Below the pieces are notes generated by a model. The model saw nothing but the letters and a program-made list of their open reading frames with translations. It was not told the DNA's origin and searched no databases. Made by a program: the position numbers and the translations under genes. Shown here one piece after another: positions 4,742-25,334 of a DNA stretch of 25,516 nt (position 1 is the stretch's first letter; every line of letters begins with the position of its first letter). The DNA comes from Thermoproteota archaeon (lineage in GTDB: Archaea; Thermoproteota; EX4484-205; JAAOZP01): positions 16,586-42,101 of the forward strand of contig JBNAVT010000019.1 of NCBI GenBank assembly GCA_049700215.1. Reading direction: 5' to 3'.

Positions 4742-5862
4742 CTAAGGGTTTAGTAGCCATTTCCACAGGGGGACGTACCGTATTTTCCTACCGTTTGAAA
4801 CATCTTCATCCTCGTAATCCCAGGTGACAACCAGCAGGTCTTTGCAATGCAGCTCTTCAGAAGCCTTGAGCAGTGCTTTAACTTCCCTAGGATTAACCTC
4901 GTCCCTCCCGCTGGCGTAAGTAACCTGTATGAGCTGCTTAATGTTTAAACCATTCTTAACGACGAAATCAACCTCGTTCTGCCGATAGTCTCTCCAGTAG
5001 AAGACTTCGAAATCGCTGAAAGAGTAGCTTCTACGCCTTAACAGTTCGACGACAACCAGGTTCTCCATCAGCCTTCCAAAGTTTTCCGAAAGCCTGAACC
5101 CGATTGAAGTCACGATCCCGTTGTCAACGCAGTAGGCTTTTTTGGGGGATATGAACTGGAGCTTAAGCTTCGGCGAGAACCTTTCGAGGAAAAACATTAG
5201 ATAGGCTTCACTAACCCATTCCGCGTAATTCTTAACCGTATGCACATCCTTTATGTTAAGTATTCTCCTAAGCCTGCTGAAGCTGAACTCGGAGGAAACG
5301 TTTGAAACCATGTATCTGGCAAACTCTTTAAGAGCCGCCGTCTTCTTAACTCGGTGCCTGCTTACAACATCCTTTTCAAGCGCATCGGCGCGCGCTAAGC
5401 ACGAAGTCAACATGCCTCCCAGTGAGGAACGTAGCCAGCTCGCTTGAAAGCAGTTGCGAGCTACTCCCTGTCACAATCATCTTCTTGGAAGTCCTCATCC
5501 TGCTTACAAACCTCTCCCAGCCGTTGACATGTTGAACCTCGTCGAGAACCATGAACTCCAGGTTCGTGCCGTAAAGCTGGTAAAAAGCCTCAAGCAGCTT
5601 CCCAAAGTCCTTTGCCTCAAAGCCGGCAAGCCTCTCGTCGAAGAAGTTAACATACCCGAACCTCAAGCCCCTTAGGAGCATCCACGAGAGCAGCGACTTG
5701 CCGCATCTCCTCACGCCGAGAACAGTCAGAATATTAGGGTGTGAAAGAAAGCTCCTCAGCTTCTCGGCGTCGACATCCCTCTCGATTATCTTCTCAGCCG
5801 CTAACAGGCTCTCCATCTCCTCTCTCTGAAGCCACGATTCTCTTCAAATCCTCGACCTTCAA
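4742..5862 (-). pseudogene. AAA_14/DUF4143 ATP-binding protein, disrupted
   Basis: Walker A GVRRCGKS, Walker B LDEVQ, VTGSSS, C-terminal EVDFVV...IQV. Frameshift near 5830 (TTG 5862 MKVEDLKRIVA/QREEMESLL). Internal deletion plus frameshift at the GC tract 5388-5395. Confidence 0.9.
5388..5397. repeat. (GC)n junction tract GCGCGCGCTA
   Basis: At the deletion/frameshift point of the ATPase pseudogene. Confidence 0.9.
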
Positions 5863-5875
5863 CAGGACTGTTTTC

Positions 5876-5918
5876 ACAAGCTTTTTTATAAAGTTTGTGG
5901 TTAATACCTACAAACTTT
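5876..5918 (-). promoter_or_regulatory. TATA box flanked by operator-like repeats
   Basis: Inverted repeat AAAGTTTGT(5890-5898)/ACAAACTTT(5910-5918), extra half-site ACAAGCTTT at 5876-5884, and CTTTATAAAA on the minus strand about 25 nt before TTG 5862. Confidence 0.55.
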
Positions 5919-6191
5919 TTAGTTGAAATCGGGAAAACATGCGTAGCCAAAACCAACTGCGTGACGCTTAAAACGAAGACCAGCATCAGGGAAAAATGGT
6001 AGAACACGACACTTTAAAACCCGGCTCCACTCTATCCCCACCGCTCTCACCCTTAACACGGAGCATTGAGGATGCTTAAGCGAATCCAGGTTCTCCCAAA
6101 AAGGTTGGTAAAACCATGCGTCAAGCTTCCCCCGCGGCTCCTCAACGCGCCCGGTAAAAGAATTTAAGTTTAAGACTGAAGAAACGCTTGA

Positions 6192-6884
6192 ATGAAGACA
6201 ATAGGGCTTATCGGCGGCATGAGTTGGGAGTCCACGCTGGAATACTATCGAATCATAAACCAGCAGGTTAAGGAGAAGCTGGGCGGGCTACACTCCGCGG
6301 AGTGCATACTTTACTCAGTCGACTTTGAAAAGGTTGAGAATCTCCAGCACGCTGGAGAATGGGGGGAACTAGCGGAGCTGATGACCAGCATCGCGCTGAA
6401 ACTCCAGGACGCTGGCGCCCAGGGGATAGTCATATGTTCAAACACGATGCACAAGGTTGCGGAGAAAGTTCAGGAAAGCCTGAGAACCCCACTAATCCAT
6501 ATTGTCGACGCGACAGCCGTAGAAGTCAAGAGGAGAGGCTTAAGGAAGGTGGCTCTTCTGGGAACCAGGTTCACGATGGAGGACGAGTTCTACAAGGGTA
6601 GGCTGAGGGAGAAACACGGAATCGACACGATAATACCCGGGGAAGCGGACCGTGGAATAATCCATGGAATCATCTACAGCGAGCTCTGCAAGGGAATAGT
6701 GAAGCAGTCGTCCAAGAAGGAGCTTGCAAGAATCATCGGGAAGCTTTCTGCGAGAGGCGCCGAGGGAGTAATCCTAGGATGCACGGAGCTACCGCTTCTC
6801 GTGAAACAGCAGGACGCAGCCACACCCCTGTTCGACACGACGGAGAACCACGCGAAGGCGGCGGCAGACTTTATACTAGGCTAG
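6192..6884 (+). CDS. Aspartate/glutamate racemase family (RacX/YgeA-like)
   Basis: MKTIGLIGGMSWESTLEYY, catalytic CSNTMH and LGCTEL. Confidence 0.95.
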   Translation: MKTIGLIGGMSWESTLEYYRIINQQVKEKLGGLHSAECILYSVDFEKVENLQHAGEWGELAELMTSIALKLQDAGAQGIVICSNTMHKVAEKVQESLRTPLIHIVDATAVEVKRRGLRKVALLGTRFTMEDEFYKGRLREKHGIDTIIPGEADRGIIHGIIYSELCKGIVKQSSKKELARIIGKLSARGAEGVILGCTELPLLVKQQDAATPLFDTTENHAKAAADFILG

Positions 6885-6895
6885 ATAACCTGGCA

Positions 6896-6903
6896 GCGCG
6901 CGC
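6896..6903. repeat. (GC)n tract, intergenic
   Basis: CTGGCAGCGCGCGCCAG just after the racemase stop. Confidence 0.8.
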
Positions 6904-6970
6904 CAGAGTTTGTTAAAGCTGGTCTTATTCATTAATTTTTAGAACTAGTGTATACTATTGACACGCGATG

Positions 6971-7474
6971 CTAGGCGCGCGGCAGTCGTTTAAGGAATTC
7001 CACGTGCATGAAAATCGAAGGAGGCTCGTCGCTGAATTTAACAGCGTTAACGACTTCGCCTACAACCAGAATATGGTCGCCGGCTTCAACCGTCTTAACG
7101 AGTTTACACTCCACCGCTATAACCGCTCTTCTAAAACCGGGGCTTTCGTCTCCTCCCCCCTTCTAAACTTGACATCGCTCTCAACAAGCTTGTCAACAAT
7201 CTTCCCCGATCTTGTTCCGAAAACCCCGTAAGCAGCGTTTTCAAGCCTCCTCCCAACCACGTTAACCACGAACTCGCCATACTCTTTTATAAGAGCCAAC
7301 GTATACCTTGACGGAACTATCGAAACAATTAGAAGCGGCGGATCCCATGAAACCCTGCTCACCCACGCCGCCGTCATCCCTCCCCTGTGACCACTGTCCC
7401 CACAATCCCCCGCAGTAACTATCGTCAACGGCTGAGGAAGATAAAGCATCTACAGGCCGAATCTTCTCCGGCAT
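6971..7474 (-). pseudogene. Flavin reductase-like (DIM6/NTAB) pseudogene
   Basis: Reconstructs as MPEKIRPVDAL/YLPQPLTIVTAG..GGMTAAWVSRVSWDPPL...APVLEE/AVIAVECKLVKTVEAGDHILVVGEV...LPRA*. Frameshifts near 7440 and 7126. Ends in a GCGCGCG tract (6975-6981). Confidence 0.85.
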
Positions 7475-7674
7475 GCCTACGCGTCCGAGAGAAAAACTAC
7501 TTAAAACTTACTCTAAACACCCTTCTCCCTCTTTCTCCACGCTGCACGCCACCGACAAACAGAATTTCCCCAAAAGCAGCCTAAACCCACTCCCATAAAG
7601 ATGCTGCGCTATGAACACGAATAGAAGCATGGAGAAAGAAAACCTGAAGAGAACTATTCAGAAAACAGGCTAGC

Positions 7675-9000
7675 CTACTTTGCTTCGAAAGGAACCTTCT
7701 CAGGAATCTCAGTCACAATACCGGCGGCAATCGTCATACCCATATCCCTGATAGCGAACCTACCAAGCTGCGGAAACTCAGAGTAAACCTCAATAGCAAT
7801 CGGCTTCAAAGGCCTAAACTTCACGATAGCAGCGTCACCAGTCTTCAAGAAATCAGGCTTCTCCTGAACAACAGCACCAGTACGAGGATCAATCTTCTTC
7901 TGCAACTCCTCAAACGTGCAAGCAATCTGCTCAGTATGAACATGCAAAACAGGAGTATAGCCAGCAGCGATAGCAGTCGGATGCCTAATCACAATAATCC
8001 TGCCGATGAAACTCTTCGCGACAGTAGGCGGATTATCAGGATACCCAATCACATTACCCCTCTTCAACTCCTCCCTCGCCAAACCCTTCACAGCCATGCC
8101 AATATTATCACCAGGCTCAGCCTTCTCAAGCTGCGTATGATGCATCTCAATAGTACGAACCTCACCAACCTTGTCAACAGGCCTCACAACAATCCTCGAG
8201 TTAGGCTTCAACACGCCAGTCTCAACCCTGCCGACAGGAACAGTCCCAACACCAGTAATCGTAAACACCTGCTGAATCGGAATCCTCAACGGCTTATCAA
8301 CAGGCCTAGGCGGAGGCTGAAACAGGTCGAAAGCCTCAAGCAGCGTCGGACCCTTATACCAAGGCATCTTCTCACTAGGCTTAACAAGATTATCACCAGT
8401 CCACCCGCTAATCGGAATAATAGGAATCGGATACTTCTCAAGATTAAAGCCAATACGCTTCAGCAAATCCTCAATACCCTTCTTCACCTCGAGAAAACGC
8501 TCCTGACTCCAATTCACAGAAGCATCATCCATCTTATTAACCCCGATGACAATCTGACGAACACCCAGCGTGAACAACAGGAACGCATGCTCAGTCGTCT
8601 GACCCTCAGGACTCACACCAGCCTCAAACTCACCACGCTTCGCAGAAACAATCAACAACGCACTATCAGCCTGACTAGCACCAGTAATCATATTCTTCAC
8701 GAAGTCACGATGTCCAGGCGCATCTATAATAGTATAGTAATATTTCTTTGTTTCGAACTTTACGTACATCGCGTCGATTGTTACTCCTCTCTCACGCTCC
8801 TCCTTGAGCCTGTCGAGCACCCATGCGAACTTGAAAGTGTCTCCTAGACCAGTCTTCGCTGACTCCGCCTCCAGCTCCTTCATCTTCCTCTCGTCAACGT
8901 AGCCGGTTAAGTATAGCAAGTGGCCTGTAGTAGTACTCTTCCCATGATCAACGTGGCCGCAGACGATGAGGTTCAGGTGTGGTCTGCTTGATGAACTCAT
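7675..9000 (-). CDS. tuf: Translation elongation factor EF-1alpha (archaeal)
   Basis: GHVDHGKST, ERERGVTID, DAPGHRDFVKNMITGASQAD, NKMD, LGRFAIRDMG. Confidence 0.99.
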   Translation of the reverse strand: MSSSSRPHLNLIVCGHVDHGKSTTTGHLLYLTGYVDERKMKELEAESAKTGLGDTFKFAWVLDRLKEERERGVTIDAMYVKFETKKYYYTIIDAPGHRDFVKNMITGASQADSALLIVSAKRGEFEAGVSPEGQTTEHAFLLFTLGVRQIVIGVNKMDDASVNWSQERFLEVKKGIEDLLKRIGFNLEKYPIPIIPISGWTGDNLVKPSEKMPWYKGPTLLEAFDLFQPPPRPVDKPLRIPIQQVFTITGVGTVPVGRVETGVLKPNSRIVVRPVDKVGEVRTIEMHHTQLEKAEPGDNIGMAVKGLAREELKRGNVIGYPDNPPTVAKSFIGRIIVIRHPTAIAAGYTPVLHVHTEQIACTFEELQKKIDPRTGAVVQEKPDFLKTGDAAIVKFRPLKPIAIEVYSEFPQLGRFAIRDMGMTIAAGIVTEIPEKVPFEAK

Positions 9001-9007
9001 TTTTCTA

Positions 9008-9048
9008 TCCTCCTTCTGTCTCCTTAGCTTCTGAGAGGGCTATTTAAG
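9008..9048 (-). promoter_or_regulatory. TATA box and Shine-Dalgarno of tuf
   Basis: Minus strand CTTAAATA (9048-9041) and AAGGAGGA (9015-9008), 7 nt before ATG 9000. Confidence 0.65.
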
Positions 9049-9177
9049 GTTTAAGGTTTTTAGCAGCGTGGTGGGTTTTTAACGGCTTTAAAGGCCTGTT
9101 TTCAACGTTGTTATCCTGGCTTCTGTAGTGTGCAAGAATCGTTGTTGGTAACTTTCGTAGGATGGTGAGTGGATAAA

Positions 9178-9187
9178 GCGCGCGCTA
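9178..9187. repeat. (GC)n junction tract GCGCGCGCTA (left island edge)
   Basis: aaaGCGCGCGCTActa. Confidence 0.85.
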
Positions 9188-9917
9188 CTAAATATGTTGC
9201 AGGTGTGAATGTGTCTTTAAGCGAAGTTTTGGGTGGACGGGAGCTATTGATCTTTTATTGGCGTTACTGCAGGGTTTACTTCGCCTATAGAAGAAGAATA
9301 GGATTCTGGAGTTTCCTTGGAGCGAGGTGCACCGCTGGCAGTTCGGCCACGCTTTGAACGAGCTAAATTGGATGATCAAGCATACTGGGTACAGGTATTA
9401 CAAGCCACGAAGGAAAATCAAGGTAAGCAAGGTTATTGTTAATGAAAGATAAGGCTGTTATAGGCTCAGCTTTGAACACTTCAGTAATCATAACGTTATG
9501 ACTACTGTCCTCCTCATTTACTTTATATTTTTTAGGGGTATGTTTAAAGGTTAAAATAGCTCTCTCTTTTTAGCGTAGAAATTGCAGGTGAAATTAAGCC
9601 ATAAACCGTAGGCTCTTCAAATTATTCTTTAAGCACTTTTCCGCCTATCTCACGCGCATGATTTCTTCTCATAACTCAGTACTCGACAAGCATTCCTCCA
9701 GAGGTTAGAAATGTGCGAACTTATTTTATCTTGTCTGCAATGAGCGAAACTGAAATTTCAGAGGTTTAGTGAAGTAACTTTGCATCCTTCGAGCAAACTG
9801 ATAACAAGATTGCCTAGAGCTTACAGCTTAGTTTTTTCTCCTTACTGGTACCCAGAACCTTTTTTATAAAGCATAGAAAACTGGTCACTCCTTAATTTAG
9901 ATTAAAAACGATAAAAC

Positions 9918-10553
9918 TTAGATTGGAACTTTAAGAAGTATTTTTATCACACTTCTTCTGTCTCTTATCTTACTATCTTGCAAGAGTGTATTTCTCCATT
10001 CTCTATTCATCCAAAAGTTATTCAAACATTCAATGAAGTATTCAGCATTTCTCACAATGTTTTGCCAAGGGCTAAAGCTTCGTAAAATCAACTTCTCTTC
10101 CTTTTCAAGTTTTGCAGCTAGGTATACTACCGGTAGCTTAAAACCTTTGAGTAGTTCATCCATGGTGTTCGTAAAGTTTAGTATGATATCCTCTCTTACT
10201 TCAGGAGCAAATACATGCCAGAGAGATAGTCCGTCAAATCCAAAAACAGAGAAAGCCATTACTTGTTGAAGGCCTGCATAGAAGTTTTTTCTTTTGATAT
10301 CATTCGGTGTAAAATACTCTATCTCTAAACACCCAATTAATGCTTTGTCATTTAGTTGTATAGGGTCTTCAAAAATAAGTATCAGATCGACTTCTGTGCG
10401 TGGTGGCGTTGCACCTTTCCACCATTCTATCCAGATCGCGCGCGCTAGGTTACGATGCCTGTAAACTTTTTTCAGCCAAGTGAACTTACCCTCATTTAGC
10501 ATGCTTTTAAGCGTTTCATATAACTTTTCGACAAAAATTCTTTCTGACATCAT
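9918..10553 (-). CDS. Hypothetical protein, possibly PD-(D/E)xK nuclease fold
   Basis: 211-aa ORF starting 3 nt after the DUF499 stop. P..EVDL...LEIEYF...FYAGLQQ resembles a restriction-endonuclease-like motif. Confidence 0.6.
   Translation of the reverse strand: MMSERIFVEKLYETLKSMLNEGKFTWLKKVYRHRNLARAIWIEWWKGATPPRTEVDLILIFEDPIQLNDKALIGCLEIEYFTPNDIKRKNFYAGLQQVMAFSVFGFDGLSLWHVFAPEVREDIILNFTNTMDELLKGFKLPVVYLAAKLEKEEKLILRSFSPWQNIVRNAEYFIECLNNFWMNREWRNTLLQDSKIRDRRSVIKILLKVPI
10437..10447. repeat. (GC)n tract CGCGCGCGCTA, in frame (NLARAIW)
   Basis: GC run inside an otherwise AT-rich ORF. Confidence 0.85.
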
Positions 10554-11110
10554 TTATTATTCAACTTTTTCCTCTTCAACTTTTGCTCCTATCTGGTTCA
10601 GGGTCTCCTTTACCTTTAAATCAATTGTATCCTTACTAATACCTTTCTCAGAGATGGCATCGATTTTTATTTCAAGAGATATTTCTGCACCTTCTCTGCT
10701 AAGTGGTGCAAGAACCCCACGGACCATGTCTGAAAGTTTATCCCATGGAACTTTAACTCTGAGTGTAATTTTTCGTATGAAGCCTTTTGGAACACTTACT
10801 GGAGAAGTGTGAGCCATAGGAGGCGGAGTTACAGATATCTCGGTTGGTGGAACTTTTTCTTTCTCCTTTTGCGCAATTTCCTTCCTCAGTACAAAAACAT
10901 CCTCTGTTAACTCTGGTAATGGGATAGTTTCTTGGTAGTAAACTTTTTCGTTCATTGAAATACCAAAAACACCATCTTCTACTCCTTTAATAAGGGCGTC
11001 TTTTAGTACGTTTTCTCCCTCAAGCATTGGTAGTTCTGGAAACTTTAAGAAAGCCTCCCAAATCTCAACCACGTTTTTGCGCTCATCATCTTTGGAAAAT
11101 GTTTTTTCTA

Positions 11111-11124
11111 TAGCGCGCGCGCTA
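11111..11124. repeat. Perfect palindrome TAGCGCGCGCGCTA
   Basis: In-frame junction between DUF499 remnants (NGFSARAIEK). Confidence 0.9.
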
Positions 11125-11380
11125 AACCCGTTGTATTCATTAGGGTCGCATATTAAAAACATTAGAGTATTCTTATAAGTCCTGTAGCCAGTTGAGTAGT
11201 TTGTCAGAATATCTTCTATGAATGCTTTTGTTTCAGGTTTATGAGCCATGAACTCAAAGGATAAGATAGCTAGCTTCAGCTTTTTATTATCAGGAATGTC
11301 GCTATTGGACTTAGGCCATATGAAAACATCAAAATCTTTACCTGCAATTTTCTCTACCCTCCTCTTCATCTCTTCCTCGA

Positions 11381-11393
11381 TAGCGCGCGCGCT
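11381..11393. repeat. (GC)n junction tract TAGCGCGCGCGCT
   Basis: Out-of-frame junction between DUF499 remnants. Confidence 0.9.
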
Positions 11394-11541
11394 TAACAAT
11401 GTATTCGGTTAGCTCGTCGATCAAGAGTAACACAGGCTTATTTTCACCCAGCATTTTTTCAATAATTTCTCTTCCGGGAGCGATTCTTTTTTCATCATGC
11501 TCTTTTACCAGCTCGTATGAGCCTAACTGCTCAGCTATTTC

Positions 11542-11558
11542 TAGCGAGCGCGCGCGTA
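11542..11558. repeat. (GC)n junction tract TAGCGAGCGCGCGCGTA
   Basis: Joins the DUF1156 remnant to the middle of DUF499. Confidence 0.9.
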
Positions 11559-12013
11559 TTTCTCCGCTTCTTTAAAAATCTCTATGTCCTTTTCCGTTGC
11601 AATTCTATACATCTTTCCTGTTTTAGAATTATGCAGAACCACAGCAACCAATCTTTGCCCAGCTTTTCCTTGTTGGAATTGTCTTCTTATTTCTTTATCG
11701 GATAAGCCAGCTCCACAAACTGGACACAGAACTTTTGCTTTCCTTACTGTTCCTTTCGAAGGATCAAAATTTATTTCTTTATCTTTCACAACTTCAAAAC
11801 CAATTTTCTTCTTTTCTTTGTCTATAATCATTTTTAATGCTATTTTTCTATTTTCTTTTTTTGCAAGCCAGAACTGCCTCATCAATGGTATTTCTGCTTG
11901 ACAAGATGGGTTTTGACATCTCATCGTTCTAGCCCAAATATAGCCTACTGGAATATTTTTTCTCCTCCACCTTCAGATAATGCTTTCTGGGTTGGTATTG
12001 TTTCTTCTGGATA
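11557..12013 (-). pseudogene. DUF1156 adenine-specific DNA methylase (Zn-ribbon) internal remnant
   Basis: YPEE.../[33 protein letters not shown]...FDPSKGTV...CPVCG...QRLVAVVL...K.YR.ATEKD. Frameshift near 11958. Both ends stop at GC tracts. Confidence 0.85.
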
Positions 12014-12024
12014 GCGCGCGCTAT
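12011..12024. repeat. Perfect palindrome ATAGCGCGCGCTAT
   Basis: 5' boundary of the DUF1156 remnant. Confidence 0.9.
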
Positions 12025-12310
12025 GTTCTTTATGCACTTAAATTCTCCTATCTCTATCCTAATCAAAAAGCCAAAAAATAGGCTATAAATCTTACTTTTG
12101 TAAAGTTAGCTCAATAGTAGTTCATTTTACTTACAACCTAGTCTATAGCTATAGCCATAGCCTTTGAGGAAATGCCTTACCCTTATCCTCTTATCCTTAT
12201 CCTTGTCCCTACTTTATAGAATAAAAAATAAAATTGTAAAAGCGAAGGCTCGTTCTAAACCCTTTTAGGTGTTAGTCCCTCCCGTCCTGACAACCAACTC
12301 GGGATCTTTG

Positions 12311-12320
12311 GCGCGCGCTA
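12311..12320. repeat. (GC)n junction tract GCGCGCGCTA (right island edge)
   Basis: ttgGCGCGCGCTAttc. Confidence 0.85.
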
Positions 12321-17266: not shown

Positions 17267-17276
17267 GCGCGCGCTA
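17265..17276. repeat. Perfect palindrome TAGCGCGCGCTA
   Basis: Out-of-frame junction between two surface-protein coding segments. Confidence 0.9.
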
Positions 17277-18236
17277 GAACACTGTTAGCGTGGCCCGAGT
17301 CCCTGAGCCTGGCCTTAAGATCCTCGTTCTCCCTTGTCAGGGTTTCCACCTGCCTGCCCAGCCATTCTGAAGAATCCTTGAGGACAGTGTAGTTCACGGC
17401 GAGCGTTTTATACAGTGTTCTTAGACTATTGTCAATCCTTACGCCCGCTCCCACAACCTCGCCACCAAGCGTCTCCACATAAACGTTGAGAAGCCCCGTC
17501 TCGTTAACCCTCACCATGATTCCGCCCGCAACCTTGGTCGCGTTGCACTCAACCTGGTCGCCATTCGCCCTGACGAGCCTAGCGCCAAACCCGTTAACCT
17601 CCCTGGGGTAGCTGAAGACCACTAGCGTCTCCTTCTCGTTAACCTCCACCGAGGCTGGTTTAAGCTCTGGAGGAGGCTCCGTCGCCTCCCCGACAACCCT
17701 TATCATGAAGTCGCCTGGCCTCCCAGTGGTGTTGAGGGAAACAAGGAGGCGTGCCTGCCCGCATCCATGATGAAGCTAGCGTTAGCAATAGGAGGATCAT
17801 CGTCGACGCTCAGCCACAGCTGAGGACCATCAAGGGTGAACATTGGCACGATAACCACGTAGAAAACGCCTTTAACAACCACTTTCGGAACCTCGAGGGT
17901 GTACCAGTCTAGCGTGGCGTTTCTGAAAACCCTGTTGAAGAGGAAAGGCTGAGAGTAGACAGTGTTCAAGCCAGCGTCCCATATTTGAACGTAGAACAGT
18001 GAGGCCGGGCCCCTGAGGATGCATGCCGCGTGAATCTTTACGGCCGTTATCCTCCATGCTGTTGAAGGCGGGGAGAACCCTACTGCGGCGCAGCTAGGGT
18101 AGAAGTCGCTCCAGCCATAGTTGTGGCCAGCATCGTCATAGCTGAGTTCGAAAGGCGTTGCGGAAGCATTCAGCAACCCGGTGAGAAGAAACAGTAGCAG
18201 GGCTAGGGCTAGAATAAGCCTGACACGCCTACCCAT
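17277..18236 (-). pseudogene. Secreted protein, frameshifted and 3'-truncated
   Basis: ATG 18236 MGRRVRLILALALLLFLLTGLLNASA is a signal peptide; ELSYDD motif. A frameshift near 17750 joins DAGRHA to LLVSLNTTGRPGDFMIRVVGE (track ORF 17197-17706). The coiled coil stops at the GC tract. Confidence 0.7.
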
Positions 18237-18296
18237 GGCTGAGAAGTATATGGGTAAAGGTTTTAAATAAGTTTTCCGCGGAATGACTGCATACTG

Positions 18297-18359
18297 GAAT
18301 CCACTAGCCGGTGGACATAGAATAGTGTAGCTTAAACAAGTTTCCCACAGCAATATATG
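18297..18359 (+). repeat. 63-bp direct repeat, copy 1
   Basis: GAATCCACTAGCCGGTGGACATAGAATAGTGTAGCTTAAACAAGTTTCCCACAGCAATATATG; 58/63 identical to copy 2 by manual alignment. Confidence 0.92.
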
Positions 18360-18394
18360 GCGAGCGAATCATATTGACGGCTGAGCCGGGTGTA

Positions 18395-19627
18395 TTATGC
18401 TTCAAGAAGCCATTTCCATATAGGCATGTATCTTATTCCTACATTTCTCACTTTAGTCTCCCCTTCCTGATCCCTAGTGATGCAAAGCAGGTTTTTGCAA
18501 CTGAGTTCTTCACTCGCCTTCACCATCTTCCTTACATGCTCCTCGTCAACCTCGTAGCATACTTCAATCACCTGCTCGATTCGGCTGCCGGTTTTGACAA
18601 CGAAATCTATCTCTCCCCCGTCCTTCGTCACATGGTAAAACACCTGGGAAATCTTGTTTTGAAGCCTTCTTAAAAGCTCGATGAAAACCAGGTTTTCCAT
18701 TTTCCTACCTAGGTCCAAGGGTTTTTCGAAAAGGTTTGAAAAAGCGAGGTCGATCACGTAGATTTTCTTCGGCGAAACCGCTCTCTCCCTTTCCGAATAC
18801 GAGAATCTCTGGAGAGTGAATATTAGGAAAGCCTGAGCCATATAGTTTATGTAATTTATAAGCGTTTTAGTGTCGATTCTAACATTCAGCGTTTCCATGA
18901 ATCTCTTCAAAGAGTTCCAAGTAAACGAGTTCGAATAGTTTGAGAGGACGAAGTAGAAAACGCTCTGGAACTCCGCCATATTCCGTATTCTAAACCTCTC
19001 CACCAAGTCTCTGTAGAAGATTGTTTCAAGCAGGGACACGATTTTCTCCCTCGACCTGTAGAGCCACACTTCAGGGAAGCCTCCCCATTTCACGTATTCT
19101 TCGAAAACTCTTTGCGCCTGCCCCCTTTCCCTGAAGGTTTTGGGGGAAACATTGGAAACCTCTCTGAATGAAAAGGGCGTCACCAGTTTTGAAACGTATC
19201 TTCCTCTTAATCTCGTTGGTATCTCGGAGGATTGCAGTGACGAAGAGGAACCGGAGATGACGACAGTGAAGTCTTTAACATCATGCAGCCACCTCAAATT
19301 AAAACCCCAGTCCCGCCATTCCTGAATCTCGTCGAGAAAAAGATTAACCTTCCCCTCAGGATACTCTTTTCGCACCAGCTCGCCAAATCTCCTAACAGGG
19401 ATCTTCCTAAGAGAAGGCTCGTCGAACGAGGCGTAAATAACCTGTTTATTGCTCTTTAACATATTGTTTGCAGTTTTAAGCATGAGAAAAGTTTTACCGG
19501 ATCTTCTCGGTCCTACTACTGCCACTATGTCCGGGCTTACAGTAGGCAGTGCAATTTCTCTTTGAATCTCCCTCACGTATCTCAACGAATCTAAATACTC
19601 GTAAGTGATTTCTAACAGTTGTCCCAT
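18395..19627 (-). CDS. AAA_14/DUF4143 ATP-binding protein (AAA+, wHTH, PD-(D/E)xK-like)
   Basis: GPRRSGKT, FLDEIQ, ISGSSS, LRGR, PFSFRE, GGFPE, PKKIY..D, ENLVF.EL, EIDFVV. Confidence 0.93.
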   Translation of the reverse strand: MGQLLEITYEYLDSLRYVREIQREIALPTVSPDIVAVVGPRRSGKTFLMLKTANNMLKSNKQVIYASFDEPSLRKIPVRRFGELVRKEYPEGKVNLFLDEIQEWRDWGFNLRWLHDVKDFTVVISGSSSSLQSSEIPTRLRGRYVSKLVTPFSFREVSNVSPKTFRERGQAQRVFEEYVKWGGFPEVWLYRSREKIVSLLETIFYRDLVERFRIRNMAEFQSVFYFVLSNYSNSFTWNSLKRFMETLNVRIDTKTLINYINYMAQAFLIFTLQRFSYSERERAVSPKKIYVIDLAFSNLFEKPLDLGRKMENLVFIELLRRLQNKISQVFYHVTKDGGEIDFVVKTGSRIEQVIEVCYEVDEEHVRKMVKASEELSCKNLLCITRDQEGETKVRNVGIRYMPIWKWLLEA

Positions 19628-19682
19628 TTATGGAATGCTGTTCCAAAGGTACTTATAAATCTTATGGAGTCTCATTCCATAA
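19628..19682 (-). promoter_or_regulatory. TATA box between two palindromic operator-like sites
   Basis: TTATGGA-N7-TCCAAAG (19628-19648) and TTATGGA-N7-TCCATAA (19662-19682) flank ATTTATAAGT (minus strand, 19660-19651). Confidence 0.65.
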
Positions 19683-19693
19683 AATTATAAGCT

Positions 19694-19767
19694 GAATCCA
19701 CTGGCGCGCTGCGAGCCAGTGGACATAGAATAGTGTTGCTTAAATAAGTTTCTTACAGCAATATATG
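19694..19767 (+). repeat. Direct repeat, copy 2, with 11-nt GC-rich insert
   Basis: Same as copy 1 plus GGCGCGCTGCG at 19703-19713. Contains TTAAATA, the probable TATA box of the downstream gene. Confidence 0.92.
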
Positions 19768-19830
19768 CAGTAAATGAGCTTTAACCTCAACCGTACTGGA
19801 CACGGTGTTCGGGCTGTTGAGGTCGTGACG

Positions 19831-21039
19831 ATGGTGGGAAAATTAATCCTCTTTACTTTCGCTCTTCTAATTCTGGTTGCCGACACTGCTCCGTGTACTG
19901 GTCTCGAGGAAAGAACTATTCTTGTTCCCGACGATTATAGATCTATTCAGGCTGCTTTAGATGCTGCAAGCGATGGGGACAGTATCGTCGTTAGAGACGG
20001 GGTTTACGTGGAAAGAATAATGATTAGGAAGCGGGTGACGATAAGGTCTGAGAAGGGACCGGATAAGTGCGTAATCGCGCCTCCGCCTTCATACGGTTTA
20101 GTGGCGGCGGTGGTTAATGTAAGCTCTAACAGTGTCAAGATAGAGGGCTTTACTGTTGAAGGCAGCTCTAATGAAATCGGGATCGCTGTAAGCAATGCTG
20201 AGGAGTGCGAGGTAGTGAATAACATTGTTAGAGGCTGCCTCATCGGGATCTTGTTTTTCAAAGCGGATAAAAACAAGGCGGTAAACAATACGCTTATCGA
20301 AAACGATTTCGGAATGAGCTTGGAAGCCGCGGGCAATAACGTTATAACGCGTAACGTTTTCGTGAAGGGCGGGATTAGTGTTGTCGACTCATACGGAAAC
20401 CGTGTTGAAGAGAATATTGTTAACGGGAAGGAGTTGATCTATCTTGAAGGCGTGAGCAACCGCGTGGTTAACCAGGGTGGGCAGGTGATCGCCGTAAACT
20501 GCATCGGGATAATTGTCAAGGGGCTTAACATTTCAGACACCGCGGTCGGCATAGAATTTCACAATACTAGGAATTCAAGAATAGAAGCCAATATCATTAG
20601 GAACAGCAGCGCGCGCGACGGGGTTGGCGACACTCCCTGCGAAATCGGTAAGGCTGTTGACAAGTATCCGCTCGCGAGGCCGCGTAGCCATTACGTTCTC
20701 CTCCATGGGAAACTGTTCATGGTTGAAGTCTCTAGCGAGAAGGGAGAGGTCTCGGGTGGAGGTCTTTACGAGGCGGGTGACATCGTCACCGTGCTAGTCA
20801 CACCCCCGCTCATAAGGGGCTTCCTAACTAACGAGGTGTTTAAAGGCTGGGTTGCTGAGAACGGTACAATGGTTTCAACCTCCCCTGCTTTCTCGTTTAC
20901 TGTTAGGCGATCCTTGTCGTTAGAAGCATCTTGGGAGACCCAGCCCAATCTGATGGGGATAGCTGTGGTTACCGGAGCGATTGCGATAGTGGTGATGCTG
21001 CTACTGGCATTAGTCAAGAGAAGGTCGGAAAAATTCTAG
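19831..21039 (+). CDS. NosD/CASH parallel beta-helix cell-surface protein with C-terminal TM anchor, internally deleted
   Basis: Signal peptide, VPDDY.SIQAA.DAA..GD.I.V..G.Y.E, beta-helix repeats, VNGK.L.YLE, DGVGDTP...DKYPL, GGGLYEAG...FKGW repeat, TM helix + KRR. ATG 19831 has GAGGT upstream; the alternative start is 19774. Confidence 0.85.
   Translation: MVGKLILFTFALLILVADTAPCTGLEERTILVPDDYRSIQAALDAASDGDSIVVRDGVYVERIMIRKRVTIRSEKGPDKCVIAPPPSYGLVAAVVNVSSNSVKIEGFTVEGSSNEIGIAVSNAEECEVVNNIVRGCLIGILFFKADKNKAVNNTLIENDFGMSLEAAGNNVITRNVFVKGGISVVDSYGNRVEENIVNGKELIYLEGVSNRVVNQGGQVIAVNCIGIIVKGLNISDTAVGIEFHNTRNSRIEANIIRNSSARDGVGDTPCEIGKAVDKYPLARPRSHYVLLHGKLFMVEVSSEKGEVSGGGLYEAGDIVTVLVTPPLIRGFLTNEVFKGWVAENGTMVSTSPAFSFTVRRSLSLEASWETQPNLMGIAVVTGAIAIVVMLLLALVKRRSEKF
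20608..20617. repeat. (GC)n tract AGCGCGCGCG, in frame (NSSARDG)
   Basis: At the apparent internal deletion of the beta-helix protein. Confidence 0.85.
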
Positions 21040-21165
21040 TTAAACGGAGCTATTTCTTTTTATCGTCTCCCCAGCTTTAGAGAAGGCTGTTGAATGTTTA
21101 AGGTGTTTAGCGGTTGAGCGCGCGGAAGAAGATGATAGCTCGTCAAGATTATGCTTTTAGAATTC

Positions 21166-22281
21166 TTAAGATGAACGTAGGGTTTCCTCGTAGGCCTCCT
21201 CTATCTTTTCCACAACTATGCTCCAATCGTATTTCTTCACTTCTCTGAAAGCGTTCGAAGAAATTCTTTCAGAAAGCTCTTCGTCTTCAAGCAGAGTTAA
21301 GACGCTTTTCGCCAACCCTTCTATCTTGTTCCTTCTCACCAGTAAGCCTGTTTCCATGTGTTTCACTACTTCCTGCACTCCGCCTTGGGCTGTCGCCACA
21401 ACCGGGGTCTTTGAAGCCATTGCTTCCAATAGCACAATTCCGAAGGATTCGCCGAAGACCGAGGGCATGACGAAGACGTTAGCCTTCTGATAGAGATCGA
21501 CAAGCTCATTCTTGCTTAAGCCTTCCCTTATAAAGACGTTATCCTGAAGATTCAGGGTTTTCGCAAATACTTTCAGGATGGGGCTCAAGTATCCGGAGCC
21601 CGCTATCGTCAGCTCCGCCTCCTTCTTTTCATCAACCACCTGCTTCATGGCTTCTAGAAGCAGGTGTAACCCTTTCCTGTACACTAGCCTTCCGACGAAG
21701 AGCACGCTTTTCCCGTCGAACTTCTTAACCCGTGGAGCATACTCTTCAACATTTACCCCGTTAGGGATAATGCTTACCTCTTTATCTGTGAAATGCGAGA
21801 TGAAGGTTGCTGCCGCCCTGCTTACGGCTATTATCCTGTCGGTACTGTTAATATACTGTTTAAGCGGGAACATTATGAATGAGGAGGGTTTCCACAGGTA
21901 GTTGAAATCGTAAAGGAACTGTATCGAATGGTTAGTCAGCACAGTCTTTACTCCAAGCCTTTTACCCACGAGTATGGAGAACAAGGAGATTGGGGAGAAA
22001 GCATGGTGAGCATGTATGATTTCCGGCTTCTCTCTTCTAAGAACCTCCTCCAGCTCATCCATGTAAGGAAGGTCTAGTGTTTGCGAGCTTCGGAACAGGG
22101 ATTTAATCCGGACGACTTTTAAGCCGCGCGCGCGCTGGGCTTCATCGTTGAAATCCGCGGTTTTAGTGATTATGACTACTTCATGCCCCCTTTTCTCCAG
22201 TGTTCTCGCCAGGTTCTCCATGTGCGTCGTTATGCCGCCTGTTTTCGGGTAAAAATAGTCGCTGCATAAGGCGATCTTCAA
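21166..22281 (-). CDS. Glycosyltransferase family 4 (PigA-like)
   Basis: MKIALCSDYFYP..GG...H, HAHHAFS, TNHS, IPNGV, VGRLVYRKG, ESFGIVLLEAMA. Confidence 0.93.
   Translation of the reverse strand: MKIALCSDYFYPKTGGITTHMENLARTLEKRGHEVVIITKTADFNDEAQRARGLKVVRIKSLFRSSQTLDLPYMDELEEVLRREKPEIIHAHHAFSPISLFSILVGKRLGVKTVLTNHSIQFLYDFNYLWKPSSFIMFPLKQYINSTDRIIAVSRAAATFISHFTDKEVSIIPNGVNVEEYAPRVKKFDGKSVLFVGRLVYRKGLHLLLEAMKQVVDEKKEAELTIAGSGYLSPILKVFAKTLNLQDNVFIREGLSKNELVDLYQKANVFVMPSVFGESFGIVLLEAMASKTPVVATAQGGVQEVVKHMETGLLVRRNKIEGLAKSVLTLLEDEELSERISSNAFREVKKYDWSIVVEKIEEAYEETLRSS
22125..22136. repeat. (GC)n tract CGCGCGCGCGCT, in frame (EAQRARGL)
   Basis: In a loop of an otherwise intact GT4. Confidence 0.85.
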
Positions 22282-23192
22282 AGGTTTTCACCGAGTTGAA
22301 GAACAATCATGTTGAATCCTCCGAGAAGAATTAAGACGTACGCGATGCATGTGCAGGCGTCTGCAAGCTTCAAATAACAGTCGAACCGTGTCCACTTCAA
22401 GCCTGCTAGAGCAGACGATACGGTAAAGATTAGAATGAGGCTCATGACGCTAGGGTAGATAAGGAGAGAGGCTGCTGACAGAAGCAGCCAGTGAAGAATT
22501 AGGAGTGTTTTTAAAACGGATAAGGATTTTTCATAGCCCAGCCAACAGACAGTGGTTCTTGTCCCGGAGCTTAAATCTACTTGGAAATCATCCAGATGGT
22601 TTCTCAACTCGAGAACAACCGAGTAGGTAAAGATCGAGGCTCCGACGAGGATGGTTTGGAGAGTTACACTGCCTGAGGCTGAAACACCGTAGAGATACAA
22701 TAGTGCTCCAAAGAATAAACCGTGAGAAGCCAGATCCATAAAGGGCACGGATTTAAGCCTGAGGGGAGGAGTAGAGTAGGCTAGTGAAAGAGCGACCAGC
22801 AGAAGGTAGATTGAGAAGCAGCTTCCGAACCAGAGGTATGTCAGCAACAGGCCCGTGACGGCTAGGCTTGACGAAAATATAATGCTCTCCTTAAACTTAA
22901 TCCTTCCCGTGGCAACAGGGTTTTTCTCAGCCTTGTCTTCTCGCAGCGCGTCGCTCTCCGCATCGAAAGAATTGTTGATGGAGAAGGAGAATGCAAGGTA
23001 GAAGGCTGTTGTCAACATGAACTTGAAGACTTCCAACGGTATCGAGGCAGCTGTGAACCCTGGGCTAGAGATGAAGCCGAGCATAGCAATACCCATGTAT
23101 GCTCTCCATTCGAGAACCCTGGAGTCGCGAGAATAGGATGCGAGGCGCGACGCAACGGGTTGGAGCACGCGCTCCACCGGGGGCGTTCTCAT
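22278..23192 (-). CDS. UbiA prenyltransferase family
   Basis: FSINNSFDAESD...KNPVATG, YSTPPLRLKSVP..D, NHLDDFQVD..SG..T, multiple TM helices. 4-nt overlap with the GT4 start. Confidence 0.92.
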   Translation of the reverse strand: MRTPPVERVLQPVASRLASYSRDSRVLEWRAYMGIAMLGFISSPGFTAASIPLEVFKFMLTTAFYLAFSFSINNSFDAESDALREDKAEKNPVATGRIKFKESIIFSSSLAVTGLLLTYLWFGSCFSIYLLLVALSLAYSTPPLRLKSVPFMDLASHGLFFGALLYLYGVSASGSVTLQTILVGASIFTYSVVLELRNHLDDFQVDLSSGTRTTVCWLGYEKSLSVLKTLLILHWLLLSAASLLIYPSVMSLILIFTVSSALAGLKWTRFDCYLKLADACTCIAYVLILLGGFNMIVLQLGENL

Positions 23193-23371
23193 CGGTTTCT
23201 TTAATACTTCTCGTAAGCCGGTTTCTTAAAGTTATCTGAACTTTTAAATAGAGAAAAAACACTATTGCTTGGTTGTAGCACACACTGTTGAAAAACAGTG
23301 TTCGACGCTGTACTGGTTATTCCATAGTTCTTGCCAAACGATAGCTTTATTAGATTTGAAAAGGCATTTAC

Positions 23372-24133
23372 GTGTTTCGTGAACAGCGCGTGGTAAGCAG
23401 GCAGGATTACGAGGATTCTGTCGATGAATTCGTGAGTATTATTGAAAGAGAGTTGACCGATAAGGTTGTGGCTGTCTACGCAGCCGGGAGTTTCGCAAGG
23501 GGCGACTACAAGCCTGGGAGAAGCGACATCGACTTGTACATCGTGGTGAAGGAGGAGGATGAAGACCTTAAGAGAAGACTTAACGAGATTGCCAGGGGGA
23601 TAAAAGATAAGAATTTGAAAGAAGTTGAAAACTATAATCCGGAGCCTCTCAGCCTGGCTTTCACGACGCTAGACGAGGTTAAAAGCGGCAGCTCGTGGCT
23701 GGGTCTAGGATGGGAGTACCACGTTTTCCTGCGCGAAGGCAGGCTGCTCTATGGTGTAGACGTTAAAGGGCTTATTCGGAAGCCGGCTCGGGAAAACGAA
23801 ACACTCTTAGCGAGAGAATTCCTAGGAAGGTTAAAGAGGGGTCATGAGATTCAAAGGCTGTTCTCAGTGGTTTTTAGAGCAACATCCATCTTCCTCAGCC
23901 TAAGCGGGGTTTACGTCGCAGCCAAGGGGGATGTGGTGAAAGAGTTTAAAAGAGTGTACCCGGGTGAGAAAGACAGTATTAAGGCTCTGGAAAGAGCATA
24001 CGAGCTATGGAGCCTCTGGGCGGAGAGAGATCTGGCGGATGAGGAGGTTCTAGAATTGTTCAGTGTAGCCCTAAAGATGCTTAACACCGTATGGAGGCTG
24101 GTGAAAAAGGGGGAAACGGGTGCGCGCACTTGA
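23372..24133 (+). CDS. Pol-beta-type nucleotidyltransferase with helical C-terminal domain
   Basis: GSFARGDYKPGRSDIDLYIVV (GS...DxD), EGRLLYG. Confidence 0.85.
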   Translation: MFREQRVVSRQDYEDSVDEFVSIIERELTDKVVAVYAAGSFARGDYKPGRSDIDLYIVVKEEDEDLKRRLNEIARGIKDKNLKEVENYNPEPLSLAFTTLDEVKSGSSWLGLGWEYHVFLREGRLLYGVDVKGLIRKPARENETLLAREFLGRLKRGHEIQRLFSVVFRATSIFLSLSGVYVAAKGDVVKEFKRVYPGEKDSIKALERAYELWSLWAERDLADEEVLELFSVALKMLNTVWRLVKKGETGART

Positions 24134-24274
24134 GAAGCATACGGCTGAACTGGTCCGGAGAGAAACCATTAGCCAGACGTGTTTCTAGCGTGCACTATGC
24201 TTGCACCAGTACTTTTCACGGAGGATACTGGCAGGCTGGGTTGACACTTTAAGCCTTGCTCCCGAGTGTTAAAG

Positions 24275-25285
24275 CTACTCGTAAACCAGGTTGCGCGGCC
24301 CAAGCATCTCGTCTATAGCCTTCATCTGGCTTGGCTTAAGCGGCCCGTATTCCAGGGCTCTCGCATTCTCCTCCGCTTGCTTCACTGTTTTGAAGCCGGG
24401 TATCGGTATGGTCATTGGCGACTTAGCCCAGATCCAGCCTATGGCTCCCTGAACAAGCGTTCTCCCGTCTTCCGTCAGTATCTGCCTTATCTGATCCAGT
24501 TTCTTAACATACTCTGGCGCAGGCTTCCCGTTCTTAAAGTAGACCAGCCAGCTTGGCGTGGACCTCCGGACATCGTTCTCAGGCAGGCTTGAGGAGTCTA
24601 GAGTGTACTTTCCTGAGAGGAGCCCCATCGCCAGGGGTCCACGGTTTATGTTGGCCAGCTTTTTCTCCTCGCAGAGCCTGATGATTTCGCTCGTAACCCT
24701 TAAAACGTTTAGCTCGCTTTCAACAGCCACGAAGCGTTCACGGTCGGCGAAGGCGGCTGCACGGCTTGTTGAGTCAGTGCTCCACCCGTAGCCTCGAATA
24801 ACACCTTCGTCAACCAGCTCCTCCAGCGTGTCCATGGTTGCAGCCGCTTTTTCAACAGGATAACCCCATATGTGAAGCAGGTAGATGTCTATGTAGTCTG
24901 TCCTCAGCCTTTTAAGCGAGGCTTCAACCGCTTTACGAGCATACTGGGGGGAACCGTCCTCGCCTGTCTCGCGTCTCGCTTCAGGGTCGAAGGTTAATCC
25001 AAACTTCGTTATGATTATTATTTCGCCACGGTGTTCTCCCAATGCTTCCCCGATGAGCTTCTCGCTGTGGCCGCAGCCGTATACGTCGGCAGTGTCGAAA
25101 ACCCTTACGCCGAGCTCGAAAGCCTTTTTCAAGGCTCTCAGAGCCTCCTCGTCATCAGTCTTCCCCCACCCGTGAGCCAGCCCGTCGGCCCCCGTGATGG
25201 GCCCCCCTATGGCCCATGTTCCAAGGCCTAGGGCGCTCGTCTCAACACTCAGCTTCGGAATCCTTCTCCTGTAGAGTCTCGCCAT
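24275..25285 (-). CDS. Aldo/keto reductase
   Basis: SALGLGTWAIGG, FDTADVYGCGHSE, TKFG, SLKRLRTDYIDIYLLH, PLAMGLLSGK, PIPGFKT. Confidence 0.95.
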   Translation of the reverse strand: MARLYRRRIPKLSVETSALGLGTWAIGGPITGADGLAHGWGKTDDEEALRALKKAFELGVRVFDTADVYGCGHSEKLIGEALGEHRGEIIIITKFGLTFDPEARRETGEDGSPQYARKAVEASLKRLRTDYIDIYLLHIWGYPVEKAAATMDTLEELVDEGVIRGYGWSTDSTSRAAAFADRERFVAVESELNVLRVTSEIIRLCEEKKLANINRGPLAMGLLSGKYTLDSSSLPENDVRRSTPSWLVYFKNGKPAPEYVKKLDQIRQILTEDGRTLVQGAIGWIWAKSPMTIPIPGFKTVKQAEENARALEYGPLKPSQMKAIDEMLGPRNLVYE

Positions 25286-25325
25286 ATCTTACCGCACTAC
25301 AGTCTTGTTTATATTGTTTTTAGAG

Positions 25326-25334
25326 GCGCGCGCT
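25326..25334. repeat. (GC)n tract GCGCGCGCT
   Basis: AGAG-GCGCGCG-CTCT, immediately followed by a headless gene remnant. Confidence 0.85.

Follow-up and report, generated by a model that had tools for sequence, protein, structure and literature searches.

Palindromic GC tracts at deletion and insertion junctions in certain archaea: possible scars of an end-joining route that writes its own filler

When broken DNA is rejoined in eukaryotes, the junction can hold extra nucleotides, either N-nucleotides added by terminal transferase or templated insertions made by polymerase theta. In bacteria and in Methanocella, non-homologous end joining (NHEJ) by Ku and LigD constitutes a dedicated pathway in which an archaeo-eukaryotic primase (AEP) polymerase fills or extends the ends, and we know of no stereotyped filler for LigD. 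The subject of this work is a stretch of 25,516 nucleotides from a Thermoproteota archaeon (assembly GCA_049700215.1, contig JBNAVT010000019.1, positions 16,586 to 42,101 of the forward strand; hereafter the window), in which a short palindromic tract of alternating G and C, built around the octamer GCGCGCGC, is found at many places. An earlier note on this DNA, made from its letters alone, had proposed that the tracts are filler put in as broken ends were joined again, in many cases at the cost of flanking sequence. Like the eukaryotic fillers, they are junction nucleotides that come from neither flank and lie at deletions, perhaps with use of microhomology; however, eukaryotic fillers are random or copied from nearby, whereas here one palindromic word occurs at hundreds of unrelated places and in different archaeal classes.

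Other described systems share further features with the tracts. The primase PriSL(X) of Saccharolobus islandicus repairs breaks by terminal transfer, annealing via 2-4 G:C pairs and extension, with insertions biased to G/C and reported products that are mostly indels of 1-2 bp (PMC12019639). Contrary to these products, the tracts represent a fixed word of 8-12 nt, and while all archaea have PriSL, the tract signature shows a patchy distribution. The DRT3 defence reverse transcriptases make alternating poly(GT/AC) DNA, one strand being protein-directed (PMC13314766), which sets a precedent for a polymerase that writes dinucleotide-repeat DNA without a conventional template. Nevertheless, the polymers made by DRT3 are long and serve in defence against phages, in contrast to a chromosomal insert of 8 nt, and the enzyme belongs to the reverse-transcriptase family (PF00078), for which no match was found in any of the 17 genomes of the genus. 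HIP1 of cyanobacteria (GCGATCGC; PMC4390886, PMC5861425) is, like the tract, a lineage-specific, hyper-abundant, GC-rich palindromic octamer; it is reported to be associated with cognate methyltransferases, conserved and frequent within genes.

According to the data presented below, it is probable that the tracts are scars of an end joining in which a stereotyped palindrome, (T)A-(GC)4-T(A), is written as filler. As the enzyme that adds the tail, the strongest candidate is AEP2, a PriS-like primase paralog, to which the gene for a second RadA/Rad51 protein (RadA2) is coupled in this genus.

Anatomy and junctions of the tract

The window belongs to contig C19 of assembly G000 (2,089,643 bp, 85 contigs, 49.2% G+C). 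GCGCGCGC shows 16 overlapping matches in it, which make up 13 loci; 100 dinucleotide-preserving shuffles averaged 0.23, and none of them exceeded 2. These loci start at 5388, 6896, 9178, 10438, 11113, 11383, 11548, 12014, 12311, 17267, 20609, 22126 and 25326, which are exactly the positions listed in the earlier note, and the excess that it had claimed is thus real. The shorter variants that it mentioned are also present, at 6975 (7 nt), 19704 (6 nt), 21118 (7 nt) and 24122 (6 nt), and two more 6-nt runs lie at 4212 and 15679. Its description of the tract was equally accurate: the lengths range from 8 to 11 nt, the interruption by GA corresponds to TAGCGAGCGCGCGCG at 11548, and A or T directly adjoins at least one side in 11 of the 13 loci, the exceptions being 5388 and 25326.

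The excess of GCGCGCGC is genome-wide rather than local to the window. In the 2.09 Mb of G000 the octamer is matched 339 times, ranking second among real octamers, and these matches collapse to 264 loci, of which 166 measure 8 nt, 34 measure 9 nt and 55 measure 10 nt. Over the 264 loci, A is found at position -1 in 206, T at +1 in 205, T at -2 in 132 and A at +2 in 125, and these base preferences define the consensus TA(GC)4TA. Exact (GC)n runs number 2692 for n=2, 156 for n=3, 166 for n=4, 51 for n=5 and 2 for n=6; the tract is therefore a discrete unit with a separate mode at n = 4, which rules out microsatellite slippage as its origin. The other 15 palindromic octamers made only of G and C have 4-132 copies each in this genome, and among the 16 only GCGCGCGC is enriched, since CGCGCGCG reaches 132 because it is contained in longer runs. 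The HIP1 word appears 8 times.

An assembly, scaffolding or library artefact could produce such tracts, given that every genome considered here is a metagenome assembly. The earlier note had suggested looking for reads that span the junctions, and independently assembled contigs do cross nearly all of them. These are Logan contigs, which are assembled from reads with no scaffolding and can hide rare variants. Those of the hot-spring run X1 cover positions 5200-23147 in five pieces and span 12 of the 13 tracts, with zero differences at the tracts and a word depth of ~10-11x, so that placeholders left by scaffolding or gap filling are excluded. Run X1 holds every sampled word of positions 5300-12400 and is probably the window's own source sample, hence not independent of it; independence of the evidence comes from the other genomes. 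Run X2, which belongs to a different study, contains 25% of the words sampled, and none of its contigs listed bridges a tract; run X3 gave no contig that could be placed on the window. Apart from the scaffold-free contigs, the signature is found in assemblies of many projects (one of them chromosome-level), seven genomes of the same genus lack it, decayed copies are present, and events within intact genes keep the frame. An artefact is thus a practically negligible explanation.

Alignments to relatives that lack the tracts show them, as far as such comparisons go, to be derived fillers at the junctions of deletions and small insertions, produced repeatedly in certain archaeal lineages. The proposal that filler was laid down at rejoined broken ends, often with flanking loss, is supported by these alignments, and the comparison with orthologs that the earlier note had recommended indicates that the tracts are derived and that flanking sequence has been lost. 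The window was compared by BLAST with 16 other species of the genus, and base-level comparisons followed. At least seven tracts had been said to sit where coding sequence stops or jumps, and this holds: BLAST alignments end within a few bases of 5388, 6896, 6975, 11383, 11548, 17267, 20609 and 25326, and tblastx (translated comparison) adds 11113 as a junction.

The clearest junctions are those with several references. At 5388..5395, within an AAA_14/DUF4143 ATPase gene, the window has CGCGCGC(T) in place of 174-175 bp in G013, G008 and G014 and of 161-162 bp in G011. This deletion junction shifts the frame and splits the gene into the open reading frames (ORFs) 5376-5816(-) and 4742-5413(-), as recognised from Pfam matches of both halves. 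The tract at 17267..17275 (GCGCGCGC+T), located between an ORF of 1158 amino acids (aa) and ORF 17197-17706(-), replaces 365-369 bp of G011, G007 and G013, with a net change of -360 and the frame kept. Conversely, the tract at 22125..22135 (CGCGCGCGC) is a clean in-frame insertion of 9 nt in a group-1 glycosyltransferase gene (Pfam), which adds three residues and deletes nothing, and G014, G009, G007 and G013 lack it. The polarity of these three events is secure, since several outgroups agree. With G006 as the only reference, the tract at 20609..20617 (GCGCGCGC), in a NosD-like repeat protein gene at 19774-21039 (Pfam), replaces 476 bp (net -468) and also keeps the frame.

Larger losses are found in a gene remnant at 10446-12013, which is collinear with ~4.8 kb of G007:C53 except for three internal deletions, each with one tract. 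The 10-nt tract at 11113..11122 seals a deletion of 316 bp (15154 to 15470 in L038, by tblastx), the 10-nt tract at 11383..11392 one of 928 bp, and the tract at 11548..11556 (TAGCGA-GCGCGCGCG) one of ~2.1 kb (~2,120 bp). The remnants at 9918-11924 gave no Pfam match, and the name DUF499/DUF1156-like is therefore not used for them. The tract at 6896..6903 lies just beyond the end of ORF 6192-6884, and at the same position G011 has 9.6 kb and G007 ~5.1 kb of DNA; it is followed by an orphan fragment of 72 bp (6904-6975), 91% identical to G011:C45:689-764, which is closed by the 7-nt tract at 6975-6981. At 25326..25333 synteny breaks, with the alignments of G002, G014 and G009 stopping there and a G010 contig from elsewhere beginning just after.

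For the four remaining loci, the BLAST alignments of same-genus relatives do not reach the tract. These are 9178..9185 (AAAGCGCGCGCTAC), in a non-coding stretch upstream of an EF-1alpha-like gene; 10437..10445, which is read in frame as L-A-R-A-I within ORF 9918-10553(-); 12014..12021 (ATAGCGCGCGCTAT); and 12311..12318 (TTGGCGCGCGCTAT). Directly after the last tract of this region of wrecked genes, a 117-aa ORF at 12395-12745 (+) matches the retropepsin-like aspartyl protease families PF13975 and PF13650. The GCGCGC at 24122..24127 is probably native and not a scar; at this place G002 has its own (GC)4 tract, which replaces ~102 bp kept in the window (24128-24230).

Within and beyond the window, the deletions resolved at tracts of G000 or G002 number at least 16 and range in size from 28 bp to 9.6 kb; three net insertions (+9 in frame; +14, consisting of GCGCGCGC and a 6-bp GTCAAA duplication; and +27) and some length-preserving patches were resolved as well. 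G002 was compared with the whole of G000, to which it is ~95% identical where aligned, and of its 51 tracts examined 13 had both flanks paired in G000. These paired tracts include five deletions (1,749, 945, 202, 102 and 28 bp), the +14 insertion and a complex insertion of +28 (at L066:11973 and L071:1750), one 8-nt replacement of the same length, two tracts with near-matches in G000 (1-2 changes) and one common to both genomes. Further tracts of G000 were compared with other fetched loci and with G003, a complete tract-free genome of 1.79 Mb with a single GCGCGCGC, revealing deletions of 320, 202, 2,143, 58, 342, 1,021 and 68 bp and two short replacements. The 27-nt insertion, which holds AAGCGCGCGCTAAA and which G003 lacks, lies at G000:C20:5933 in a tRNA-like gene with a T-arm-like GGGAGAGACTCGAACTCTC nearby, and could be either an intron remnant or a scar within a tRNA gene.

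At the junctions compared base by base, the filler is an alternation of G and C, in some cases with T/A added, 7-14 nt long, that is absent from the reference at both breakpoints and derives from neither flank. At about half of these junctions, 1-5 nt of G/C on one of the native ends coincide with the tract, a raw proportion with no statistical control. The breakpoints in relatives show no tract, no common motif and no element. Cutting by a restriction enzyme followed by fill-in at AGCGCT/RGCGCY was rejected, as AGCGCT is not depleted (372 observed, 439 expected) and the breakpoints in relatives lack such a site. When the flanks of tracts were compared with one another by BLAST, no similarity extended past the tract and only overlaps of neighbouring tracts were obtained, for which reason an extended repeat, such as a miniature inverted-repeat transposable element (MITE) or a repetitive extragenic palindrome (REP), was also discarded.

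The frequent TA on both sides, the palindromic scar and the insertion with a 6-bp target duplication are features that a cut-and-paste transposon with GCGC termini might leave as excision footprints, with flanking deletions in addition. However, no multi-copy element was found in G000 (metagenome-assembled genomes, MAGs, can lose repeats), the flanks of the tracts share nothing, and the ends of the deleted segments carry no element in relatives. Moreover, the flanking TA is not always native: it is so on both sides at C29:7193, but forms part of the filler at L070:9465 of G002, where TAGCGCGCGCTA replaces 945 bp. The second clean insertion, that of 22125, has no duplication, so that one of two carries one. 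A transposon is thus very unlikely.

Another possibility is that tracts arise first as small insertions and that deletions follow by recombination or slippage between two nearby tracts, one copy being left. Pure insertions do exist, a perfect GC identity of 8-12 bp is a good substrate for microhomology-mediated deletion, and the tracts of G000 are clustered, with 12 inter-tract gaps of 55-103 bp versus ~3.5 expected and short fragments caught between two tracts. Even so, we regard this order of events as unlikely, given that undeleted relatives have no tract at either end of the segment for 5388 and 17267 (three or four references) and for 20609 (one reference), and that the first writing of a tract would still be unexplained. 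The short orphan fragments bracketed by two tracts, together with the 38 of 51 G002 tracts that sit in DNA absent from G000 on one or both sides, might instead point to recombination or insertion sites of a cassette-type gene exchange, that is, to gain and swapping of DNA and not to repair. This interpretation seems improbable in view of the collinear deletions inside single genes, of the tracts that appear de novo where relatives have none, of the small size of the tract (only 8-12 bp) with no flank similarity past it, and of the decay of tracts, which are not conserved.

That decay, together with the position of the tracts, shows that they are tolerated mainly in dispensable DNA and then degrade. 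In G000 only 16% of them lie in an open frame of at least 600 nt, versus 72% of random sites, and the 118 perfect copies of the 10-mer AGCGCGCGCT are accompanied by 71 single-transition variants (6 for the control word) and 37 single-transversion variants (23 for the control word). Because tracts avoid long open frames and decay by transitions, they behave like scars rather than functional sites, and the decay series suggests that their production has continued over roughly the divergence time of these species. These properties bear on the remaining alternative, a HIP1-like iterated palindrome arising from methylation-linked short-patch repair and kept by selection. In its favour, the octamer is hyper-abundant, GC-rich, palindromic and limited to certain lineages, and three sites differ from a relative by a few substitutions with no change in length. 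Unlike HIP1, however, most resolved sites are indel junctions, long open frames are avoided and the changes are internal transitions, whereas HIP1 deviations are described as biased to end positions (PMC4390886). In addition, a search limited to the C5 family (PF00145) found no methyltransferase in G000, G008 or G002. It is hence highly improbable that the tract is a second HIP1. The sole C5 DNA methyltransferase among the five genus genomes searched is encoded by the tract-free G004 (C44:1223-2584).

Distribution of the tract signature

Within the genus the signature is patchy. The 10-mer AGCGCGCGCT is found 118 times in G000, 88 in G008, 70 in G002, 33 in G009, 32 in G007, 18 in G006, 16 in G010, 6 in G013 and 3 each in G011 and G014, while it is absent from the seven other genomes, four of which are at least 90% complete. 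Among 401 sampled genomes of the phylum, the 12-mer TAGCGCGCGCTA appears in 26; outside the genus the maximum in this sample is 12 copies (G285, with 4 of the control word), followed by 4-5 copies in G105, G142 and G389.

A second group of archaea carries the same signature. Four Bathyarchaeia genomes have 69-114 copies of the 10-mer versus 2-5 of the control, and five further Bathyarchaeia genomes have 9-32 copies of the 12-mer versus 0-1. (One more entry, G405, is the same genome as G008.) All species genomes were also scanned for paired tracts 50-80 bp apart, and at least 80 loci were found. Among the loci listed, 22 are archaeal and 58 bacterial, and 18 of these 22 are labelled Bathyarchaeia or Bathyarchaeota; they come from several projects, including one chromosome-level assembly, and have a local G+C of ~45%. 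Since the signature recurs in Bathyarchaeia assemblies of several projects, it is not tied to one project, sequencing method or heat, and the enrichment follows taxon and not project, which was another of the checks proposed in the earlier note.

As for the 58 listed bacterial loci (~63% G+C), we take most of them to be chance matches. Five of them, L098, L124, L120, L113 and L090, come from MAGs with a local G+C of 36-49% that are labelled Gammaproteobacteria, Eubacteriales, Patescibacteria, Acidiferrales and Pikeienuella. Because chance is less likely at such a composition, the signature is perhaps not confined to archaea. Full-text literature searches on the octamer turned up no report of it as a filler.

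AEP2 as a candidate tailing polymerase

The earlier note had stated that the enzyme responsible could not be identified in the window, which agrees with the location of the present candidate on another contig, C17. A search with the PriS family gave one match in the tract-free G003 and two each in G000 and G008, and the extra gene is AEP2 (G000:C17:241-1059), for which G003 has no equivalent. It encodes a protein of 273 aa, shorter than the canonical PriS of G000, which has an open frame of 377 aa. AEP2 scores 32.2 bits against PF01896 (cut-off 26.8), aligns to the catalytic core of Pyrococcus PriS and matches the PriS chains 1g71 and 1v33 of the Protein Data Bank (PDB) at E = 2e-6. In 33 relatives with 35-63% identity, residues D97, D99, H153 and D205 are invariant and would represent the DxD, the motif-II histidine and the third Asp, while H109 and C117 likewise do not vary, and C120 hardly does, as in a His/Cys zinc knuckle. 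A first structural model, built from a 6-sequence input, was uninformative (pLDDT 37). In the later one (pLDDT 82.4, pTM 0.81), the top Foldseek matches are the archaeal PriS structures 9f28, 1g71 and 5of3 (E = 1e-10 to 1e-12), followed by eukaryotic Pri1 and by NHEJ polymerases, including 5dmu of Methanocella and the LigD-Pol 2irx of Mycobacterium (TM ~0.54). AEP2 is thus apparently an active PriS paralog, judging from its predicted fold and conserved residues.

With this fold and these catalytic residues, AEP2 resembles the enzyme of PriSL end joining, although it is an extra and shorter paralog. The matches to 5dmu and 2irx relate it also to the Ku/LigD pathway. Unlike that pathway, however, no Ku (PF02735) was found in any of the 17 genus genomes, nor was the LigD polymerase (TIGR02778) in the three members tested (G000, G008 and G003).

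In all six genus loci, AEP2 overlaps the end of the gene for RadA2, a full-length RadA/Rad51 protein of 318 aa (Pfam E = 8e-92) that shares no more than 51% identity with the canonical RadA also encoded by these genomes. In G000, the RadA2 gene spans a contig boundary, where the ends of C59 and C17 overlap. A second, partial RadA2 copy (residues 1-247, 93% identical) is found in G007 at C11:13975-14715, away from the AEP2 locus, which suggests that the module or parts of it have moved or been duplicated. Close AEP2 relatives are labelled Brockarchaeota in public records, and a search of viral contigs with two peptide patterns found no relative. In the Bathyarchaeia genome G403, ~1.5 kb of non-coding DNA upstream of AEP2 (contig C3, L293, 2260-3759) contains several tracts that have the opposite phase (TACGCGCGCGTA and AACGCGCGCGCGTAG, for example), for which reason the register or edge of the filler may differ between lineages.

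AEP2, intact or in ruins, tracks the scars in two archaeal classes. In the genus, intact AEP2 and RadA2 are present in the same six genomes, namely G000, G008, G002, G007, G006 and G013, the last being an assembly that is 70% complete and has only 6 tracts. G009, with its 33 tracts, holds only an AEP2 pseudogene, in fragments with stop codons, and neither gene gave a match in any of the seven zero-tract genomes or in G011 and G014. Tract-rich genomes carry extra AEP2 fragments as well, one of which (C69:553-756) ends 14 nt from a tract. Among the nine tract-rich Bathyarchaeia, six have AEP2 or pieces of it: the gene is full-length in G403 and in G410, which shows the highest tract count of its set; G408 has one truncated and one divergent copy; and remnants are left in G404, G406 and G409. 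The 384 sampled genomes outside the genus yielded one full-length relative (G023) and two remnants (G142 and G090). In metagenomes, 80 contigs encoding AEP2 relatives (559 kb) hold 143 tracts, that is, 0.256 per kb, versus ~5 expected from composition (~27-fold), and AGCGCGCGCT appears 28 times on them while the control word is absent. Even at the 72 distant loci (≤46% identity or partial matches) there are 109 tracts, with at least one at 46 of the 72. That AEP2 so often survives as a pseudogene is consistent with a costly gene, acquired and lost again, whose scars outlast it.

Other routes to an enzyme were less productive. Prim-Pol (PF09250) does not track the signature, being present only in G002, and the only PolX-like palm is the minimal nucleotidyltransferase of a HEPN pair. 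The neighbourhood of the tracts, inspected through the Pfam matches of 50 ORFs on nine tract-dense small contigs, consists of housekeeping genes, AAA_14/DUF4143 ATPases and toxin-antitoxin genes, with no polymerase. Subtraction of the tract-free G003 left 397 of 1865 ORFs without a match; the annotation of these, which is not exhaustive and was confined to ORFs with 130 aa or more in five windows of 20 kb, comprises 45 genes, mostly for sugar metabolism together with an ATP-synthase operon. This operon, at G000:C7:16986-25175 (L282), is of the A/V type and complete (I, c, E, C, A, B and D; Pfam), and has no tblastn counterpart in G003, which is 93% complete.

The proposed joining route and its implications

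In the route proposed here, a short GC tail of unit length, complementary to itself, would be added to the 3′ ends at a break. The tails of both ends would then anneal, or the tail of one end would anneal to G/C microhomology native to the other, after which gap filling and ligation would complete the join. AEP2 would be the tailing polymerase, and RadA2, which is translationally coupled to it in this genus, could pair or protect the ends. A tail of this kind accounts for the palindrome, for the length mode of 8 nt with its minor peak at 10 nt, for the partial A/T edges and for the one-sided G/C overlaps, while the one target duplication, of 6 bp, is what would result if a break were staggered and its two overhangs were filled in. 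Between the mechanisms offered in the earlier note, GC tails made by a primase or terminal transferase fit better, as a PriS-like paralog co-occurs with the tracts; its other suggestion, an excising element, finds no such element to rest on.

Several points weigh against this route, or against AEP2 as its enzyme. All of its steps, including the writing of (GC)4 by any enzyme, are ones that we infer, and the polarity of the G000-G002 pairs is presumed, being based on two genomes with no outgroup. The tract-rich members of the genus are mostly each other's closest kin, so that the within-genus contrast amounts to about a single evolutionary event and the counts ignore kinship. The metagenome enrichment was calculated against a composition-based expectation, without matched control loci. 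RadA2 adjoins AEP2 only in this genus; in G403 and at three distant metagenome loci, AEP2 stands alone among ordinary genes. G023 encodes an AEP2 relative of 354 aa and has no tract signal, and G010 gave no AEP2 match despite its 16 tracts. Finally, the tract-rich Bathyarchaeia G401 (chromosome-level, 114 copies of the 10-mer), G402 and G407 have canonical PriS only, with no trace of AEP2. Because of these three genomes, that AEP2 writes the filler can only be inferred.

The same genomes are what an alternative polymerase would explain. The scars would then be real but written by PriSL, or by Ku and a LigD-type polymerase in Bathyarchaeia, with AEP2 as a bystander in the same variable compartment. 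G401 and G403 encode both Ku and a LigD-type polymerase, and G404 encodes Ku, which leaves room for another polymerase in these genomes; PriSL is described as joining ends via GC microhomology (PMC12019639); and AEP2 copies are often wrecked and located in variable DNA. On the other hand, the genus itself yielded neither Ku nor, in the members tested, LigD polymerase, canonical PriS is also present in the tract-free G003, and AEP2 loci from many metagenomes are enriched in tracts. We consider this alternative possible but doubtful.

A more ambitious version of the proposed route can be put forward only tentatively. AEP2 might be a new end-joining polymerase that writes a self-complementary word, ~(T)A(GC)4, on broken 3′ ends without copying a partner strand, so that any two ends could zip via the same 8-bp GC duplex. 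It would have spread among Brockarchaeia and Bathyarchaeia by gain and loss, paired with its own RadA in the genus, and would be the main driver of deletions and gene wrecks in these flexible genomes.

Most archaea rejoin broken chromosomes without Ku, and the tracts provide a natural signature of one such route that can be read in the sequence. Genomes from at least two classes of archaea carry this signature at hundreds of places each, and it comes with a candidate enzyme whose catalytic residues are predicted. For the annotation of these genomes, (GC)4 tracts are a warning, as they mark broken genes. Even if the assignment of the enzyme fails, the scars reveal, with no more than the sequence at hand, where uncultured archaea have recently lost or gained DNA by deletion or insertion and where pseudogenes have formed. 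If a dedicated primase paralog does write the filler, the ratio of perfect to decayed tracts would serve as a molecular clock for deletions, and AEP2 would represent a rare case of a polymerase that adds a defined sequence to DNA ends, beyond telomerase and the CCA-adding enzymes.

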